From NCBI GenBank assembly GCA_004022145.1, contig RCNU01000002.1: a stretch of 64,000 nt of DNA; one strand, written 5' to 3'. The position numbers and the translations under genes are program-made. This DNA is from Paecilomyces variotii (Eukaryota). Under the pieces are notes generated by a model. It ran no database searches, was not told the origin of the DNA, and saw nothing but the letters and a program-made list of their open reading frames with translations. Shown piece after piece: positions 4,874 through 63,263 of the stretch (its first letter is position 1; every line of letters begins with the position of its first letter).

Positions 4874-6205
4874 CTACAGCCCAAACAAGGCCTCAAAATC
4901 TGCACCTTCTGCTTTAGCCCTCGCCCATATCTCGTTACTTTCACGTGTATGCCGCTCAGAAGGCCTCTCAGACCGGGGGCCTAGGTACGAGGCGTTCTGA
5001 ACCGCATAATACAGATATGGCCAGATACGGTTGATGCTCAGGTCATCCAGCAGCTCCTCCGCTGTCCGGTCTGAGCCTGGCCGCGACTTAAATTTTTCAC
5101 TTCTCATAATGTCCTCAATCTTGTCCACGGCGTCACGCGCTGCGCACGTGCGCGCGTCATTCAGCAGGTCTAAGATGCCTTCTGTTTCCCACCATGTGGC
5201 ATATGAGTACTGCATCGCTTGGGCCATTTCGTCACAGCCGCCGCTTTCAGTTACTTCGGGTATGAAGTTGCATGCGTTATCTGGCTCGAGGAGGCTGGGC
5301 AGAATAAAGTAGGGGTTAATTGTGACCGCAGCCATACCGAGCTTGCGGGCTTTTTTCACGAGCTCGCTCTCGATCTTTAAAAGGGACACGGTAGATTCTC
5401 TCTGGAATTTCGCGGAGAGGGGACTCCGAATCACGGCCAACTCGATCGCCTCCCGAAGTTCGAAGGGGAGGCGAGTTCGCGTGAGGAGGATCTTTCGGGT
5501 GATCTTCAAGTTGCGAATATCCACGAGTAGTTTCAAATTTAGTATCAGGACAGCAATGATGTGGTTCAAATTCGGAAATTCGCCGAGAAGGAACCCGGGA
5601 TCCTCAAGAACATCAGCCCCGGAGATATTGAGGTACGGTAAGGTCATATCGCCCCAGTTGTAATCGCCGTCTGGGTCACACGTCGCCCACCACTTCACAA
5701 AATCATAGCATTCTTGGTCGCGATCCAGTCGCAGCATTATCGCCGGCACAATGTCTCGTATCCCCAGATTGTCGGCGCGGCAGAGTCTTAGCATATCCAG
5801 CAAGTGCTCGAGGGCTTCGTGGACACTATCAAATGTGCCAAGGGGAAGCAAATGATCCCATGCAAGCTCAAACCGTGCGCGCATATAGCCGCGCGTGTTG
5901 AAAATGCCCCAGAAGTGGCCGACATGCGTCTCAAAGGCGTTGGCGGGAGTCATGAAATCCGGCGTGGCATTGCGGACGCGGCGGTCTTCTTCGGCGAGTA
6001 TAGCGCGTGCTTTCTTAATCTGTTTACAAACAGATTTATGCAGGATAAAGTGAACGGTCTGGTGTTCGCGGTTGCAGTAGTGGACTGCGCGACAGCCGCT
6101 GCATCGGAGGAGCTTTCGGCCTGTTGCTGAGCATTGAGCACAGCGCCGGCAGAGGGATCCGGTCGGGCTCTTATATTGGCTTGGGCTGTGCAAGGTGCTA
6201 GCCAT
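4874..6205 (-). CDS. MYND zinc-finger protein, intronless
   Basis: CAQC...CSGCRAVHYCNREHQTVHFILHKSVC MYND signature followed by a helical domain (TRGYMRARF...LCRADNLGIRD); first ATG at 6205. Confidence 0.88.
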   Translation of the reverse strand: MASTLHSPSQYKSPTGSLCRRCAQCSATGRKLLRCSGCRAVHYCNREHQTVHFILHKSVCKQIKKARAILAEEDRRVRNATPDFMTPANAFETHVGHFWGIFNTRGYMRARFELAWDHLLPLGTFDSVHEALEHLLDMLRLCRADNLGIRDIVPAIMLRLDRDQECYDFVKWWATCDPDGDYNWGDMTLPYLNISGADVLEDPGFLLGEFPNLNHIIAVLILNLKLLVDIRNLKITRKILLTRTRLPFELREAIELAVIRSPLSAKFQRESTVSLLKIESELVKKARKLGMAAVTINPYFILPSLLEPDNACNFIPEVTESGGCDEMAQAMQYSYATWWETEGILDLLNDARTCAARDAVDKIEDIMRSEKFKSRPGSDRTAEELLDDLSINRIWPYLYYAVQNASYLGPRSERPSERHTRESNEIWARAKAEGADFEALFGL

Positions 6206-6671
6206 GATGCCTCCTGTAGGAACCAACCTTTGAGGCACCACAGCGGTCCAGGATACAACGCGATTGAGTCGTCCGAGTTGGACGGAGTACGGAGCAAGTA
6301 AGTATACAATGAGACGGTTGCTTATCTGCCCACCTACACCGCCTGCCCTAAGTACTAGTTACTGTCTTCGCCATCGCCAGACTCGTCTTTCCCGCATTCT
6401 CAGGCCCCAGGAACTCACTCTTCTGCCCTTAAATCTTCTCGTAATCATCTAATGAGCCGCTCTCATCTGCTTTATTTGGCCATTAGTCTTTGCCGTGTTC
6501 TCACCAGTCAACTTGGCCAGTAATAGTAAGGAGTCAGTCGACTATTCGGGTCTTTTTACATTAGACATCGATGCTATCATTCGCTTAATCCAACACAGTC
6601 ACTTTGATAGCTTTCGTTCTTCTCTTCATCCTGTGATCCTATCTGCGAGGCTGGATCCTCTTTTTTTCATA

Positions 6672-7667
6672 ATGAACGTCAATCGCGCCAGGGTTCGAAA
6701 TGTTTTCATCTACAATGGTGCTACAGGCGACCACTTCGGTGGAATGCGACAGAATGGATCGATAACAGAAGCGGTGTTTCTATGGATCCTGAGCCATATC
6801 CTGCTCATTACAGATGCTGAGCTTGAAGTCAAAGCTCGAGCTTCCCAACAGATCATCTTACCGACAAGCAACCGCCTTGAACCTGGTGATTATGACGTCT
6901 ACTGCAATGGTAAGTGTTATGATCTTAACAAGTACTTCTATGATCCTACTTTACTGACTGAAATAGGCTCTATTAAGCTCACTAACGAACCCTGGGTGCT
7001 ACGAATTCTATCACATAGTGTCAGTGGAAGAGAAGAGAGCTTTCGTGAAGGATTACGTAAACGAGATGGAAAGTGTGTCCTATCAGGTTTCGAAAATCTG
7101 AACGCGGATATTGGTGACTGGAGCCCCTTTGAAGGAGCCCATATTTTCCCGCTTGAAAAGGAGAATATATGGATTACGCAGAATTTCGGAAGATGGATCA
7201 CTGATATGGACTATGCGAATGGAGTTTCGAAGATAAACAGTTGTCAGAACGGATTACTTCTACGGCGTGATCTTCATACAATGTTCGACAATTACCTCAT
7301 CTCAGTCAATCCAGACGTGAGTGACTCCGCAGAAGATATTATTATTCTTTTGGTTACTAATATTTTTATTCGTTCAAAGGACGGCTATAAGATTATAGTA
7401 TTCAATCGTGACATCTTTGGTCTCGATGGACGAGTCCTGGATCCTGTATGTCGTAATCCAAGAGACCTGCACCGCGTCTCAGATGAGTTACTTCGGTGGC
7501 ATTTCCGGCAATCAGTCCTTGCGAACATGAGAGGCGCTGGTGAGCCTATCTTTGAACATGATTTCCCAGCGGGAACGGATATGATGAGGGAAATTTATGA
7601 AGGCCCCAGTGCGCAGGAAAGGTTTGAAATGGAAATTGCTTCGAGATTACGCGGATTCGAGATTTAG
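6672..7667 (+). CDS. HNH endonuclease-domain protein; exons 6672-6909, 6967-7316, 7380-7667
   Basis: RDGKCVLSG...EGAHIFP...NSCQNGLLLRRDLHTMFD is the fungal HNH_2-type motif; two GT-AG introns (6910-6966, 7317-7379) with CTGAC/CTAAT branch sites. Confidence 0.9.
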   Translation: MNVNRARVRNVFIYNGATGDHFGGMRQNGSITEAVFLWILSHILLITDAELEVKARASQQIILPTSNRLEPGDYDVYCNGKCYDLNKYFYDPTLLTEIGSIKLTNEPWVLRILSHSVSGREESFREGLRKRDGKCVLSGFENLNADIGDWSPFEGAHIFPLEKENIWITQNFGRWITDMDYANGVSKINSCQNGLLLRRDLHTMFDNYLISVNPDVSDSAEDIIILLVTNIFIRSKDGYKIIVFNRDIFGLDGRVLDPVCRNPRDLHRVSDELLRWHFRQSVLANMRGAGEPIFEHDFPAGTDMMREIYEGPSAQERFEMEIASRLRGFEI

Positions 7668-8103
7668 ATGATGAGGGAGAAGAGACATTTCCAGAGTGAA
7701 AATTACGTCTGTACGACTTACTGGTCTTATTTTTTTTTAGCGTGGAATGGGCAGTCATATAAGGAGCTTCAGAGAAGGGATGGTTAGCATGATCCAAAAG
7801 ACAGCGTCAGGTATCACCGTTTCTGGCCGCCAGTTAACCATCTCATCATTAGACAGAGTATATATATTCATTTCTATAGGTGAGATAAAATTCTTATTCA
7901 GAACTGGCGCTGTCAACAATGACCGGCAATAGTCGATATTCGAACGAATTAAGAAACCGGAGAGGTGTGTACTCGCATGTATTGTATAAGTCTCTCATAT
8001 CTCACAAAAACATATATATATAGCCCTCACATTAAACACCAACACCAATTAACACCCCCTAGACTAGTAGTGAAGTAGAAAATACGTGAGTTAAGAGAAT
8101 CTT

Positions 8104-8755
8104 TCAAACGCCCCTCGATGACCTCGTCCCAATCCCACCCGGACCGTGCCCATCTCTCCTGTCCGATCGTCCCCAGGATCGAGTACTAGCCCCAGCTCCA
8201 ATGGAATTGGACGGTGAACCAGACACAGACGCCCCACGAGAAGAAGACGTAGAGACCGCCGCAGATGATGCAGCGGATGTCGCCGAAGAAGATGTGTTGG
8301 TCACAGCTGCACCTTTTGCGGACGAAGCGGCGGTGACCGCCGTTGGATTGCACGTTGCGCAGATGAACACGTTGAAACCGTGTCCGTCGCAGCGTGAGCA
8401 GACGGAGTCTCTGGTAGGCGGGTTATTGAGTTGAGTGATTGGTTCTTTCGGGAAAAAAAAAAGGAGAAGAGAGGAGAAATATACAGGGAATGTTGAGTTT
8501 CAGAGTTTGATGGAAGAAGGGAATAGACAAAATTTTGCAACTTGTATGATAATAAATGCATGGCAGATAGGAAAGAAGATCCTACCAGAACATTGTGCTT
8601 GTGCGAGTCCTGAACAGAAATAGGCAAAAAAAAAAGATTTGAACATACCTTGGCGCATTTCCTGCACACATACTGCAGGTCACAACGGTTCTGCCCCTGA
8701 TGCAGGACACATGCTTAGGGTCTAGCGACAGGGGCGCCACGCTTGCTCGAGACAT
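8104..8755 (-). CDS. Small (137 aa) Cys-rich protein with DnaJ-like CxxCxG zinc-finger repeats and a Ser/Ala-rich tail; exons 8755-8649, 8410-8104
   Basis: ATG at 8755, GTATGT donor at 8648 and CAG acceptor at 8411 give MSRASVAPLSLDPKHVSCIRGRTVVTCSMCAGNAPR-DSVCSRCDGHGFNVFICATCNPTAV...; splicing preserves frame and joins the Cys motifs. Confidence 0.75.
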
Positions 8756-8969
8756 CACTGCTCTATAACAAAAAAATAACCCCGAGTAGTAGTGTTAGCC
8801 CGCAATTCGGCCTGAGTTGAGAACTGAAGAGAATCGCGGGTTTTATAATAGATAGATATGTATCCGTAAAATGGTCAAGACGATATATTGGTGCGACAAG
8901 ATTTTCGACACTCCCGAAACAGGTAAAGACAGGATTGTTTAGTTGGTGTCTGAAGATTTTTGTACTTAC

Positions 8970-10480
8970 TTCTTTCTCCCCCAAAACGATCTCCTGAGGT
9001 TACCCTGTTTATAGAAGATTTTCGCTCCTCGATCAGACAATGCTTCAACCGACACCAGACGGTAACCTGCCACGCAATGTGGAAGACACTGCAACAATAG
9101 GAAATTGAATATTTCTCAGGTAGAGCTGCAGTGTCACTCAACGCAAATTGGTATTCTACAATCACTGTGAATAATCAATATGGCAGAGACCTCCGCGATA
9201 CAGCATTGGTGATACTAAGTTTTAGTTCAACCTGTCACGGCTTTGGTGGTGGAGTATAAAAGATCAGCAGGACACAAGCATGAAAAGCCTAAGTTCTCAC
9301 GTTAGCAATTCATGTCAATTCTGTAGACTGCAGGCCAGGTCTCAAGCAGGAGAGAAAACATCTGGGACAGCAGCTGAAATCGAATGTTGGTGTGGTGTGT
9401 TCTATGATTTTATACCGTACTGCAGTTATCGATGGCTTCATGTTATGTCAGTGGTCCTTGACAGACATTATATTTGAAATTACCATCCCACAAGGTGGAC
9501 GGACAAGGGCACCATAGACATCTGAAGCTACGCCGGGTACATCCTACGCTGGCTCGTCCCCCAAAGGCCCAGTCACCTGTCCACCGAGAGAGGTTAGTCG
9601 AAAATAACTGAAATAGCGAGCGTATTGCACAGAAAAGGGGCCCCAATCCAAGAAGCTACACTTCGTGGATGTCAGACTCGACTAAAATCTACAGTTGTTG
9701 CGTTGTGCTGGCACAGCGAGTATCGAGGATCACCAAAATGGCTGCCTCCAATAGCAGTAAAACTAAATGTCGTACAGGCAATTGGCACTTGGGGAAATTG
9801 TCAATATCATCATCCTTCACCGCTTCGTGTCCAGCCTAGTAGTCATCTCAGATCTTTCGGAGCCGTTCGCGATTGTCGAATCAAGATATGCCAACCTCGG
9901 AAGGCTTGCTGCGGCTAGCATAGGGCATCAATAGATAATTCCTTGACAGCTTACGTTGACAGGACATATTTAGCATGTATGCGCGTGCTGACTGGATACA
10001 GGGGGTGAGCGGAACACGGAGTAACAGGACCTCATCGTATTCGTGGACACAGCAAGCCGGCCATGCCAAAAGTCCATACTGAAGTCGGGCGCAGCTGCTG
10101 TTACTGCAACGTTGACATCCATTAGAGAGGTAAAGGTGTACTGACGTAGCCAGGGCATAGTCATCTCTAGGCAAGAGATGAGATAGATTATCATTGAGAT
10201 CACAAGGACATGCACATACGGACTACAAACGCTGCATGCCGGTTGGTTAGGGTTGTAGCCGGCTGTTTGTCGCGATCATGTAGGTCCAGCGCTGGCGGCT
10301 GCTGAGGGGAAACAAGAGAAATTGCCCTGGGAGGTTAGCGCTCTACTGTCGATAAACAAGGTGATATGCGTGTAGCAGCCAGCGCAGAACAAGGATATCG
10401 GGGAAACAGGTCTTGAACCCAAGAGTATTACTACCTTCTGTAACAGGGGAGGATGTCATATTGTATTTTCCGTCATATCT
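8970..10480 (-). ncRNA. Candidate telomerase RNA (TER); both ends approximate
   Basis: Template AACCCUAACC (10254-10245); AGCCG/CGGCU stem ending 2 nt 5' of it; long-range helix between 10448-10434 and 9018-9003; 11-bp stem (9135-9085) followed by a 4-bp/5-nt-loop hairpin (9082-9070); GUAAGU at 8969 with a downstream GCUAAC branch point; no credible ORF in the interval. Confidence 0.65.
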
Positions 10481-12613
10481 CATGTTCCCCTATAATCCTT
10501 TTCCAAAATGTTATGCAGAAGTTTTCGATTCTCAGTTGGAAATTCTGCTCGTTTGAGCCACATAAATAAATAGACAAGGGGAGGCCAAATCCCGAGTTCT
10601 CTCTTATTGACTGGTGGTCATCTAGATCTCAAATATAAACCAAATACCGAGGGCCACTTTGAAACAGTCGATGGAATAAGGTACTTACGTCTAGTACAAT
10701 TCTTGACACTTGCCTTGGCAGAGTATTAGGCACAGCGAGAGCCAAATGAAAATGGACAACACGGAAAAAGAGCCCGCGCCAGTCGCACAAACAAAAGATT
10801 CCAACATCTCTATCTAGGTTCCTATGATTCTTACGCAGTATCAGAGTAATGACAGAGGAGACTGGAAGAGTACGAGCGTTTATAATCACCTGAAAGCTGC
10901 GCTCGCATCCTCCGTAGAGATAGAGAGTTGTGACCGACCTGAGATCCGATGAGATAGGAACAGAAATTCCTTTGGCAGGGATTGACGATCTAAGCCCCCG
11001 CATGAGACGGGTTACAGGCACTTAGGGTCCGCTTCTGCATGGCCGCAGTTACCGATAGAATTGAAAGTGTCAATCGCATGGTCGAGGTCAATAAGAGAAA
11101 TTCATTGGTGGAGATTTGTTTAGATGATAAAAAGGTTGAAATTGATTCCTTTCTCTGTATATCAGGACAGAGACTCGCCATCGTGCTCGAAGTCAGAGCC
11201 CCGGTCTAGAAACAAACGACGATCAGGTAGGTATGATGGGCCCAGACGTCCGCTCTGTCTTTGGGAATGCTATCCTGGGCGTGGGAATTTCTTTGATCAG
11301 CAAGCATGATCCAGCCAGATGTATGTACCGGAAGCTTTGATTGGAAGACATTGCCTAGAGACACAATTCTGTTCAACGTGAGTTCTGCGTTGGGACTCAA
11401 CTATCAATGATGGAGACTGCGGCATAGACACGTTATCCCCGGTCTCTAGAGATATCACGCCAGTTGTTTAGATGAAAAGAGTGTGTATGCAGGCCATACC
11501 TGTTCTTGAGTTCCGCTGTCTGGGTTGCCAGCCGGCGCAGGACCAGTGGTTGGAGGGGATGTCCTAGGTGATGCGGCAGAGACTCCAACTCAAACATCAT
11601 TCTGTACTTAAGAATCCGGGCCTATCGGGCAACTAATCAGATCGGGAAGGTATCAACGTCTCAATCTCGAGATTAGCAAGAGAGAGAAGAGGTCTGTCAG
11701 TCAGCTCGACAGCACACAGAGCCTACCAAACGGCAGAAAACAGGATGATCACGGTTGCCTCGCCTGGCCTGACCTCGACACTTGTCCCTTAGGTCCTTCT
11801 TTGAAACACCATGAATGCATTTCTGGAATGGAAAATTAGGCACACAGCGTATCTTGCTGCCGACCAACAGCGGACATCCATCAAATTAGTTCGTCTCAAT
11901 TTAAACGAGCGCTGCTGGACAGACAACACCCTTCAGCACCCAGGTCTGCCTCTCATACTACGTTAGAGCGGGGTCCTACACGGTGTAGGTACTCTCCAGA
12001 TTTTCGAACTAACGTCCTCGGAGCGCCCGTTCACGGAGTACGCGGAACCTTAACGGGAGAAGAAATATACCTGTACTACAATACCGATGCTACAGATATG
12101 ATGGTCCTGAAATGAATAAAAGAAAATTTGAATTGGTTTGTTGCTGGATATTCATAGGTAAAGCCTCACATGGGCCATATCACACAGCGGCCCCTGCTGA
12201 CTGCGATGAGAGGAATATTGGCCTCTAGACGCAAGATTTCTTCAGCGTGCAGTAGTGCAACCACCCATGGTAGCAAGTCGCCAGCAGGAAAGAGGGGTGC
12301 GAACCGGTGGGGGCGGGGGTCTCTGGAGATATGGTGACAGAGAGTCTGTAATAGTAAGGAAAGAAAGAAAGAAAAAAAGATCGAGCTGCAGCAAGAAACC
12401 TAATGTGAAGCCGTATTAGACAGTCACCCTGGGTAGCGATTCCTACGATGTCCACCGTATTCCCTAGCAGACGCACTAAAAGATAGCCTTCCCCTGAGCT
12501 AAACGCCTTCGAAATCCATAATCACATAGTCCCTGAAACGCCAGTCATTGTGTGATTCATCGCCATACGGCCGTAGGATCCATACTCGTTGTTCAATTGC
12601 ATGGAAATAGGCT

Positions 12614-21708: not shown

Positions 21709-23234
21709 ACTCCTAGACCCACACGGGCCAAGGGGAACTATTTCAGAACTACCTTGCACCGCACATTTGCTTAGAAAACCAAAAGAAGTCCCGGCGCCGA
21801 AAGGGGTAATTTCTAGCCATATTATCTCGATGTCTTGGATGGAACAATCTGCTCCGTGTGCTAATATTCAAGTCAGCTCAAGTCGAGATCATGGTCTCTG
21901 TTGCTATGACCAAGTTAATTTCAATCTGTCGATAGTCTCCTCCTAGTTTATGCACTTATATGATGCTGTGTGTAGATAGTATGTGACCATAGAAGACTAC
22001 TGTAGGTACTGGCGATGTTGTTTACTTGAGATTATGATTATCTATTGTTATTGCTGGTTGGGCGAGAGTGCCTCAGACGTCATTGTATATCGGCTCTTGT
22101 CCGTAATGATACCCGGGATCTTGGCAACGTTGTTCGAAAAATGTTTCTGGCGTTCCTGGATGTACTCCTGTAGTCCGTGCTGTACACACAAGGGTCAACA
22201 AAGAATAATCCTTTATCTTTTAGGTTGCTCACCACGGCTAATTGATTATAGTTAGCCGTCCTTCGTCGGATGACTTTTCCAAAGATCGATACTGATGCAC
22301 AGAACAAACACGTGAACTGTCACTGCGATTATCGATATCTCCCCGTTCGAGGTCCTATCAATGATCATCCAGGAACTCTCCCAGGCGAAGAAAGGATCAG
22401 CGGTGGCTAGAAGCCCCGCTAGCGTTGCAACGGCCAAGACACCGGTATGCTTGATGGGGGATTCAAGAATGCAATTGTTGGCATTGACACAGAGAAGATG
22501 GATCGCGGTTCATGCGACGGATGGGTGAGTCTGATGACATGGGAGGAATCTGCGTCGAGTTAACTATCTACTCGTCTTAAGGGAAAGCCCGAGGGGGGAA
22601 GACTCCGTTACTCTTCTGAAACAAAGCAACTCACCGATGGTTTATTCTTTTTTTGAGTTGAGTTGATCTCCCGCTCCGTTCAGGCTGTTGCGGTCTTTCT
22701 ATCCGGAGTCTTGGATCAGAATTACCATAATAATAATACTTAGTGAACGCCGTCAAGTGGTTTCATCTCCAGCGGGGTGGGTTCAGTAATGGCCGTCGCC
22801 CAGTGAGCACTCCGACGTACGCCGTAGTCACAAGTCACAAGCACAGTAATACTTTAGGAGTCATATAGCGAGCTGCTAGTGAGATACGGAACTTGCCGGA
22901 CAATCCGATAGAGCAGTCTCTTGCCTTTTAGTTTGTTCATGGCATGCCCTACTTCGAGTTTGGGTTTGGCCGCGTCGGGATAAGCGTACCTGTAGCAAGA
23001 CTACCGGCAAGCCTCAAAGGGACCCAGCGCGCCGCCAGCGCGCCTCCCACTTCATTCTCGCTGCCTCACCTCCTCTTCGTTCGATCCTCAATAATTCACC
23101 TCTTCTCCCCCCCAGCACGAGGTCGTGAGCATGCAAATTGCTGTCCAGATCCTCGACTCTCCGTCGTTGTCGCCCCTAGAGGTGACTGCGACGCTCTCCC
23201 GGAGATGAGACGACCTCCGAAGCTGCTGCTTTGG

Positions 23235-62470: not shown

Positions 62471-63263
62471 ATGTTGAAAATATGGTCAATGGTATGCTCG
62501 CAAGACTTCGTGACAGTCGGGGGCGAATCTTCGGATGACTAACAGGTGTTCGTTGTACAGAAGCAGAAGCAGCAACAGGCTGAGAATGCTGCAGGGGGTG
62601 CTGCAAACAAGAAGAAAAAGGTTACAGCTGCCCAGCTGCGAGTACAGAGAGGTGCGTATGATCTCACCTCCCCCCAACTCTGGCAGCCGTGTGTCTTGAG
62701 CCGTTGACATGCTGACATGGCGTTTTACGCATCTATCAGATCTGCAGGAGCTCTCTCTCGGAAGCACGATGAAACTGTCATTCCCTAACCCAGACGATAT
62801 CCTTAACTTCACCCTCACGATCGAGCCTGACGAGGGCATGTATAAAGGCGGCTCCTTCCACTTCAACTTTGCCATCAACCAGAACTTTCCGCACGACCCT
62901 CCCAAAGTCAAGTGCACGCAGAAGATCTACCATCCCAACATCGACCTGGAAGGAAACGTGTGTCTGAATATTCTGCGAGAGGACTGGAAGCCGGTGCTGA
63001 ACTTGAATGCCGTGATTGTGGGATTGCAGGTGAGTTTACTTTGCTTGATTCTGTCGATTTCGCAGAACATCATAGCTTCAACTAGAATTCTTGCTAACTT
63101 GCATCTCTAGTTTCTCTTCCTCGAGCCTAACGCGTCCGATCCCTTGAACAAGGAGGCGGCCGAAGACCTACGTACGAACCGGGATGGCTTCAAGCGCAAT
63201 GTGCGGTCGTCTATGGCTGGTGGATCCGTCCGTGGTATACAATATGAGCGCGTGATGCGATAA
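62471..63263 (+). CDS. UBC12: NEDD8-conjugating E2 enzyme Ubc12; 4 exons
   Basis: MLKIWSM/KQKQQQ...[18 protein letters not shown]...[39 protein letters not shown]. Confidence 0.96.

Follow-up and report, generated by a model that had tools for sequence, protein, structure and literature searches.

A spliced intron between a long conserved leader and a small cysteine-rich protein gene in Paecilomyces variotii, compared with the terminal introns of fungal telomerase RNAs

We analysed a 64,000-nucleotide window of contig RCNU01000002.1 of Paecilomyces variotii (assembly GCA_004022145.1), in which an intron at positions 8969-8763 stands directly in front of an open reading frame (ORF) for a 137-residue zinc-finger-like (ZnF) protein. 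Positions are those of the window, and the transcript and the RNA upstream of it are on the minus strand. The initial annotation had proposed that this intron closes a telomerase RNA (TER), so that arrested splicing would release mature TER and complete splicing would give the ZnF mRNA. In our judgement the locus is probably simpler than that: an ordinary intron of the 5' untranslated region (5'UTR), lying in a long and very conserved leader, rich in upstream ATGs (uATGs), of a small cysteine-rich protein gene.

Fungal genes have 5'UTR introns and leaders rich in upstream ORFs (uORFs), for example those of the cpcA/GCN4 type. For fungal TERs, a 2015 study by Qi is said to have found the 5' splice site AUA(A/C)GU conserved across the Pezizomycotina. 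The mechanism of Schizosaccharomyces pombe TER1 reportedly requires a weak pyrimidine tract (Box, 2008), and Kannan is said to have found in 2013 that a long distance from branch point to 3' splice site, together with such a weak tract, slows the second step so that the cleaved 5' exon accumulates. In a survey of 13 Aspergilli (Kuprys 2013, PMC3603654), AUA(A/C)GU is kept in all of the TERs, with an Sm site of the form CGGC3-5U7-12 at the 3' end, the branch site GCUAACU and a promoter word, CRCGDCGCG, placed 39-48 nt upstream of the 5' end; the gene lies between those for a TATA-box-interacting protein (TIP) and Zpr1, near PPIase and arrestin, an arrangement that A. nidulans lacks. After mutation of the first nucleotide of the TER intron of A. 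niger from A to G (A1G), the product was mostly spliced and cleaved RNA was reduced more than 10-fold (Kannan 2015, PMC4299874). In Ustilago maydis, the TER derives from the 3'UTR of the Emi1 mRNA and its biogenesis is linked to that mRNA (Logeswaran 2022, PMC9564094).

The RNA evidence for the present locus consisted of contigs assembled from four runs (X1 to X4), and such contigs reveal neither start sites nor levels. X1 came from the same organism as DNA runs that contain the complete stretch, and was recognised as RNA from its four joints, all of which read CT..AC on the plus strand (GT..AG on the minus strand). Record 1 of X1 (2476 nt) maps to 8970-9454, 8649-8762 and 7600-8410 and continues below 7600. 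Exactly the predicted intron, 8969..8763, is excised in this contig (intron 1, 207 nt, in the 5'UTR; joint 8762/8970), as is a second intron at 8411..8648 (intron 2, 238 nt, GUAUGU..CAG, phase 2; joint 8410/8649). X1 depth was zero in the bins 8512-8625 and 8854-8967, which lie within intron 2 and intron 1, respectively. Splice joints were seen in one of the four runs, X1; the metatranscriptome runs X2-X4 pass unspliced through the introns and behave like DNA or pre-mRNA, from a lineage that differs by about 2%. Intron 1 is real and completely spliced, and its product is an mRNA.

All motif positions given in the initial annotation were found on the minus strand. The canonical 5' splice site GUAAGU (GTAAGT in DNA) occupies 8969-8964, and the branch site GCUAAC (GCTAAC) occupies 8799-8794, with the branch A at 8795. 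The strong U-rich tract further down, UUAUUUUUUUGUUAUAG, has a U fraction of 0.47 and a run of seven U before the AG in which it terminates (8764-8763). From the branch A to the 3' G we measured 32 nt, in agreement with the earlier estimate of about 30 nt. The start codon, ATG at 8755-8753, follows the AG of intron 1 by 7 nt, and the UUUUGG that had been read as an Sm-like tract (8981..8986) precedes the 5' splice site by 11 nt. Among the four RNA-verified introns, intron 1 alone carries a branch site of the CTRAY consensus. Because the signals are used in RNA, they are beyond a chance pattern. With an X1 contig that joins leader and coding exons, and with a conserved ORF downstream, intron 1 qualifies as a spliceosomal 5'UTR intron of a protein-coding gene.

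The exons defined by X1 are as follows from the 5' side. The leader exon (8970..9454; positions 1-485 of record 1) is at least 485 nt long and holds five uATGs and no long ORF. Exon 2 (8649..8762) consists of 7 nt of leader, the start codon and the first 35 codons, which read LDPxHxSC...CxxCAGNAPR, in accord with record 1 and with the N-termini of the homologues. The coding part of exon 3 (8104..8410) carries CxxCxGxGFN..FICxxCNP and a Ser-rich tail and ends with the stop codon at 8106-8104, as X1, the translation and the homologues agree; the transcript extends below 8104 as a 3'UTR.

Compared with the Aspergillus/Neurospora type of TER cleavage, the locus has the same order of elements, namely an Sm-like U tract, a 5' splice site, GCUAAC and a 3' splice site, and these lie downstream of a long ORF-free RNA that contains a word with CCCUAA. 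Unlike that type, it has G rather than A at intron position 1 and a tract of U4GG rather than CGGC3-5U7-12; the promoter word is absent, the neighbours are different, the hairpin that would correspond to P6 is 51 nt long where the Pezizomycotina P6 is described as compact, and splicing to a conserved coding gene goes to completion. Like S. pombe TER1, which is processed by first-step-only splicing (PMC4299874), it combines a canonical GU site and a consensus branch site with a rather long branch-to-AG distance; unlike TER1, it has a U7 tract before the AG, and the ligated form alone was seen in contigs. The proposed arrangement would resemble that of U. maydis in that a TER and a protein-coding mRNA would come from one precursor. 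In U. maydis, though, the TER is cut out, with a 5' monophosphate, from sequence 3' of the ORF; the putative TER of P. variotii would be 5' of the ORF, with a splice site as its end. The GT..AG intron just before a start codon, the several uATGs and the complete splicing are those of ordinary fungal leaders. The locus departs from them in a conservation that is higher in the leader and the opening 98 nt of intron 1 than in the coding exons, and in a 10-nt word that occurs three times around the splice site.

The claim that the downstream exons encode a protein was borne out, for the ORF is conserved among homologues and is spliced together with the leader in one X1 contig. The ORF of 137 codons (8755..8649 and 8410..8104) is open only once intron 2 has been removed, and in the X1-spliced transcript the first long ORF starts at 8755. 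A word-based protein search with exon 3 gave no match at near lengths; an exhaustive search with the same exon gave 13 proteins at E <= 1e-3. The homologue set comprised 12 of these 13, P0126 (2148 aa, matched in its Ser-rich tail alone) being omitted, and sources were checked for 10. The named homologues come from four genera of the Eurotiales (P. variotii, Penicilliopsis zonata, Aspergillus nanangensis and Penicillium rolfsii). In their alignment C40, C43, G45, G47, F48, C53, C56 and P58 are nearly invariant, and a start region LDPxHxSCIGGRTVxTCxxCAGNAPR and a C-terminal ...PRN are common. The 137-codon ORF is a real, conserved gene for a cysteine-rich protein.

The position of intron 2, after GNAPR, is also common to the homologues. 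P0123, P0127 and P0134 are spliced exactly as in X1, P0134 being the NCBI model of P. variotii itself, and the models P0121, P0124, P0128, P0129 and P0132 read through the intron. From these three spliced and five unspliced models, the alignment argues that the intron position is old and that the family is often mis-modelled. In Pfam, no family reached its cut-off for the ZnF protein; BSD2_CRD (PF25436) came to E 0.15-0.53 and 11-12.7 bits against a cut-off of 27. An identity with BSD2_CRD or with the DnaJ-type zinc finger (PF00684) was rejected, as the profile cut-off was not reached and the likeness is limited to the CxxCxGxG spacing. An AlphaFold2 prediction for the homologue P0123 (alignment A1) had a mean pLDDT of 46.7 and was unusable as a model. 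In the Protein Atlas the best feature score was 0.78 with TM <= 0.32, and the structure rows with DnaJ_CXXCXGXG clusters had TM 0.24-0.32; both were treated as weak leads. Separately, homologues of TOM70 and of the ZnF gene apparently share one contig in Penicilliopsis zonata and in Aspergillus nanangensis; the two genes are 8 kb apart in the window, and linkage across the Eurotiales is suggested. At the protein level, a TOM70 exon of the window matches P. variotii with 100% identity, Thermoascus with 87-88% and Aspergillus with about 84-86%.

Conservation of the leader was assessed from the differences between the window and the sister lineage in X2, which amount to 40 position-ordered rows, those of weakest support included, and are taken as complete up to 10061. 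The leader exon differed at 1 of 485 positions (0.2%), the first 98 nt of intron 1 at none of 98 (0%) and the ATG exon at none of 114 (0%). The last coding exon had two differences in 307 nt (0.65%), at 8236 and 8272, both in third codon positions. Divergence was 6/238 plus four indels in intron 2 (2.5%), 9/109 in the 3' part of intron 1 (8.3%), 9/135 in the 3' flank (6.7%), 8/121 in 9498-9618 (6.6%) and 5/443 in 9619-10061 (1.1%). The block 8872-9497 thus contains a single difference in 626 nt (binomial P = 7.5e-5 for a region chosen post hoc), against 2.5-8% in the neighbouring introns.

The five uATGs of the leader (9454-8756) are at 9441, 9361, 9313, 9281 and 9206. For the peptide of the first uORF (43 codons, 9441-9313) no homologue was found, a result that is uninformative at such a peptide length. 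A 10-nt word, CGAAAAUCUU in the RNA sense with one copy reading CAAAAAUCUU (repeat family D1), occurs at 9024-9015, 8962-8953 and 8907-8898; the copies are spaced 55 and 62 nt apart, flank the 5' splice site and all lie inside the conserved block. This word is a possible protein-binding or splicing-control element. With its length of about 490 nt, its five uATGs, the single difference in 626 nt and the thrice-repeated word, the leader is a reasonable candidate for post-transcriptional control, and a role in regulating the translation or splicing of the ZnF gene is probable. A small nucleolar RNA in the leader was rejected, for the C/D-box rows of Rfam were weak, one at 9032-9124 (23 bits, where the gathering score is 85) and another at 9404-9491, and no C box was visible by eye.

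RNA polymerase II would start near 9454-9475 and make a pre-mRNA composed of a leader exon of about 485 nt, the 207-nt intron, a 114-nt exon, the 238-nt intron and a last exon. Both introns are fully removed, and the mRNA encodes the 137-residue protein with its CxxC and CxxCxGxG motifs, which has relatives across the Eurotiales. A start site of its own near 9454 is what the break in X1 points to, together with a TATA-like ATATAA at 9468..9473, 14-19 nt upstream of the contig end at 9454 and, judging by its letters, a candidate core promoter. Between 9455 and 9621 X1 lacks any contig, no repeat above 10 nt reaches 9455, and the conserved block ends at 9497, shortly above the contig end. The separate start site that the initial annotation had placed at about 9000-9100 is wrongly positioned, because the leader exon spans at least 485 nt (8970-9454) and overlaps what had been taken for the 3' domain of the TER. 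The simpler alternative that it had mentioned, an independently promoted gene with a 5'UTR intron, held as regards the spliced intron; as regards the promoter, the gap at 9455-9621 favours a start near 9454.

Several observations weigh against so plain an account. Conservation is stronger in the leader than in the coding exons, and it extends over the first 98 nt of intron 1, for which a plain leader gives no reason. Five uATGs would hinder access to the main ORF. About 100 nt before the splice site there is a junction resembling the CR4/5 domain of TERs, with a perfect hairpin of 4 bp and a 5-nt NUNGN loop. Record 1 of X1 enters the convergent HNH gene, so that its depth of 645 is not that of the ZnF mRNA. 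The contig end at 9454 is a hint of a start site, as contigs cannot show starts. Finally, same-strand transcription in X1 is nearly continuous from 10831 to 7600, with gaps at 9455-9621 and at the one base 9773, and some mRNAs may for that reason start far upstream of 9454.

The last of these points leads to one long unit, in which the ZnF gene has no promoter of its own. Its mRNA would come from starts at or above 10831 and have four introns and a leader exceeding 1.7 kb, either by read-through past a poly(A) site at 10571 or from a long non-coding upstream unit, and the break at 9454 would be an accident of assembly. The same-strand X1 contigs 10831-9774 (with two GT..AG joints), 9772-9622 and 9454-7600 are separated by gaps of 1 nt and 167 nt, the stretch is uninterrupted by an ORF, and record 12 of X4 (9406-9696) crosses 9454. 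However, X4 is also unspliced through intron 2, so that this cover may be DNA. The poly(A) site at 10571, seen in an X4 contig as 23 T before that position on the plus strand where the genome has no A run, is where at least some upstream transcripts end. Contig depths, for what they are worth when each contig has a single figure, are very unequal along the stretch: 17.3 for record 3 (10831-9774), 2.8 for record 2 (9772-9622), none over the gap and 645 for record 1. With a TATA-like box, and the limit of the conserved block, just above 9454, we consider a single long unit unlikely.

The upstream transcript itself is spliced. Record 3 of X1 (938 nt) comprises an RNA with no ORF above 110 codons, from which a 67-nt intron (10622..10688; joint 10621/10689), belonging to the low-depth upstream transcript, and a 53-nt intron (10167..10219; joint 10166/10220) have been removed. 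The 5' splice site of the 67-nt intron stands in a context, AGACGUAAGUAC (10692-10681), almost the same as that of intron 1, AGAAGUAAGUAC (8973-8962). Further upstream, 10571-12613 is a region of about 2 kb without an ORF above 130 codons or a Pfam match, lying under the deep record 4 of X1 (10890 upward) and ending at the poly(A) site 10571; this is a separate non-coding RNA or else the very long 3'UTR of a 506-aa protein (14134-12614, minus strand; serine-rich and tail-anchored-looking).

The shared locus envisaged in the initial annotation would instead have a TER of about 1.3-1.5 kb, from about 10500 to 8970, whose 3' end arises when the spliceosome cuts at GUAAGU in its first step. That splice site would also serve the ZnF mRNA, with or without an internal promoter near 9454, and the 3' domain of the TER would at the same time be the leader of that mRNA. 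In favour of this proposal is AACCCUAACC at 10245..10254, a perfect 10-nt template-like word that exceeds one telomeric repeat, contains CCCUAA with repeated ends and is the only one outside a coding exon in the 64-kb window. The fold of 10330-10255 has a 5-bp helix, AGCCG/CGGCU, that stops 2 nt short of this word. Between 10600 and 8970 there is no long ORF, and same-strand transcription is seen across the region. Conservation runs from a conserved 3' block through the variable 9498-9618 to the moderately conserved 9619-10061, the UUUUGG stands 11 nt before the splice site, and U. maydis offers a precedent for a TER linked to an mRNA (PMC9564094).

The minimum-free-energy fold also allows a CR4/5-like three-way junction to be drawn at 9064..9149. 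Its P5 would pair AAUUUG with CAGGUU (6 bp), its P6 would be an 11-bp hairpin at 9135-9085 (51 nt), and a P6.1-like element, CCAC-AUUGC-GUGG at 9082-9070, has a 4-bp stem and a 5-nt NUNGN loop. The only sister-lineage change in the junction, at 9143, retains its pair as U.G. Among dinucleotide shuffles, a loose descriptor of such a junction was matched by 40 of 400 and a strict one, set post hoc, by 4 of 2000.

Against these features stand the signals by which the TERs of the Aspergilli are known. The 5' splice site AUA(A/C)GU is absent from the minus strand over 10250-7000. Neither strand of the window has an Sm site of the form CGGC3-5U7-12; CGUUUUGGGGG is present instead. The promoter word CRCGDCGCG has no exact match in the window and none within one mismatch at 10260-11000, and its one-mismatch sites window-wide (47) were close to expectation (51). 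The branch site does resemble theirs, GCUAACA matching GCUAACU at 6 of 7 positions, a sequence that is also the general fungal branch consensus. Rfam, which contains an ascomycete TER model, gave in version 15 no telomerase family at the gathering score over the whole window and none at E <= 10 over 7600-11200, so homology of the upstream RNA to a known TER was not shown with Rfam 15. The window neighbours are an SNF1-like kinase, SDR, MYND, HNH_2, the family-less 506-aa protein, TOM70, PRELI and Sec1; TIP, Zpr1, PPIase and arrestin are not among them. On these grounds, the identification of the upstream RNA as a TER was not supported.

Structure and splicing were no more favourable. The fold of 10330-10255 had z +1.21 and 178 of 200 shuffles folded at least as well; that of the leader had z +0.49, with 67 of 100 shuffles at least as stable. 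Taken over the template, junction and 3' pieces, z ranged from -0.44 to +1.21, giving no thermodynamic signal. Two U/A helices of 8-9 bp (10070-10062/9977-9969 and 9738-9731/9248-9241) lack a second U run for triples, and no convincing U/A pseudoknot with U-A.U triples was found in the upstream RNA. The P6 of 51 nt, the excision of an intron 25 nt downstream of the template-like word and the break in X1 cover at 9454 likewise tell against the proposal. Full splicing is to be expected from GUAAGU, GCUAAC and a U7 tract before the AG; the A. niger A1G result (PMC4299874) agrees, and G1 with a strong U tract predicts the form that was the sole one seen. Arrested splicing that releases a TER is accordingly not borne out, given the canonical GUAAGU, the strong U tract and the ligated form alone in X1. 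As for the template-like word, 0.12 chance occurrences of such a 10-mer are expected per window (2 x 64000 / 4^10), whereas, for a genome of about 30 Mb with one TER, the probability that a given 64-kb window contains it is about 0.002. Altogether we regard a shared TER/mRNA locus as distinctly improbable, and the telomere-like word as most likely a chance match within a weakly expressed, spliced non-coding or read-through transcript.

Other candidate TER signals in the window were rejected. A second template-like word, CCCTAACCC at 62783-62791 on the plus strand, is part of a coding exon in a gene for a UBC-type ubiquitin-conjugating enzyme and so illustrates that telomere-like words arise by chance. 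The sole AUAAGU with a branch-like site, at 21959 on the minus strand, has neither an upstream U run nor a template. Three metagenome loci (L001-L003) that match a 20-nt P6.1-like word share nothing else with the window at blastn E <= 1e-5 and were attributed to chance.

Turning to the flank below the gene, the sister lineage in X2 and X3 departs from the window at 7969 and resumes with letters equal to 5789-5816. About 2.15 kb (5819-7968) are thus present here and absent from that lineage, and two genes are involved, that of HNH_2/DUF7881 (6456-7667), which the segment contains, and the MYND-finger gene, of which it contains the N-terminal half.

In its fullest form, which we think very improbable, the TER proposal holds that P. 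variotii (Thermoascaceae) makes its TER here, that the AU splice site has been lost and that the terminal intron has turned into the leader intron of the ZnF gene, one 5' splice site either releasing TER or yielding mRNA. If that were true, the supply of TER would be coupled to the expression of a protein gene and the leader would be the three-way-junction domain of the TER. It would be the first ascomycete TER to have a splice site and exon in common with a protein-coding mRNA, and in it the cleavage mechanism of the Pezizomycotina would have a natural G1 variant. For the family of the ZnF protein itself, which has no Pfam entry, the gene proves to be missed or mis-modelled in most annotations, and the exon structure given by X1 can repair the public models that read through intron 2.

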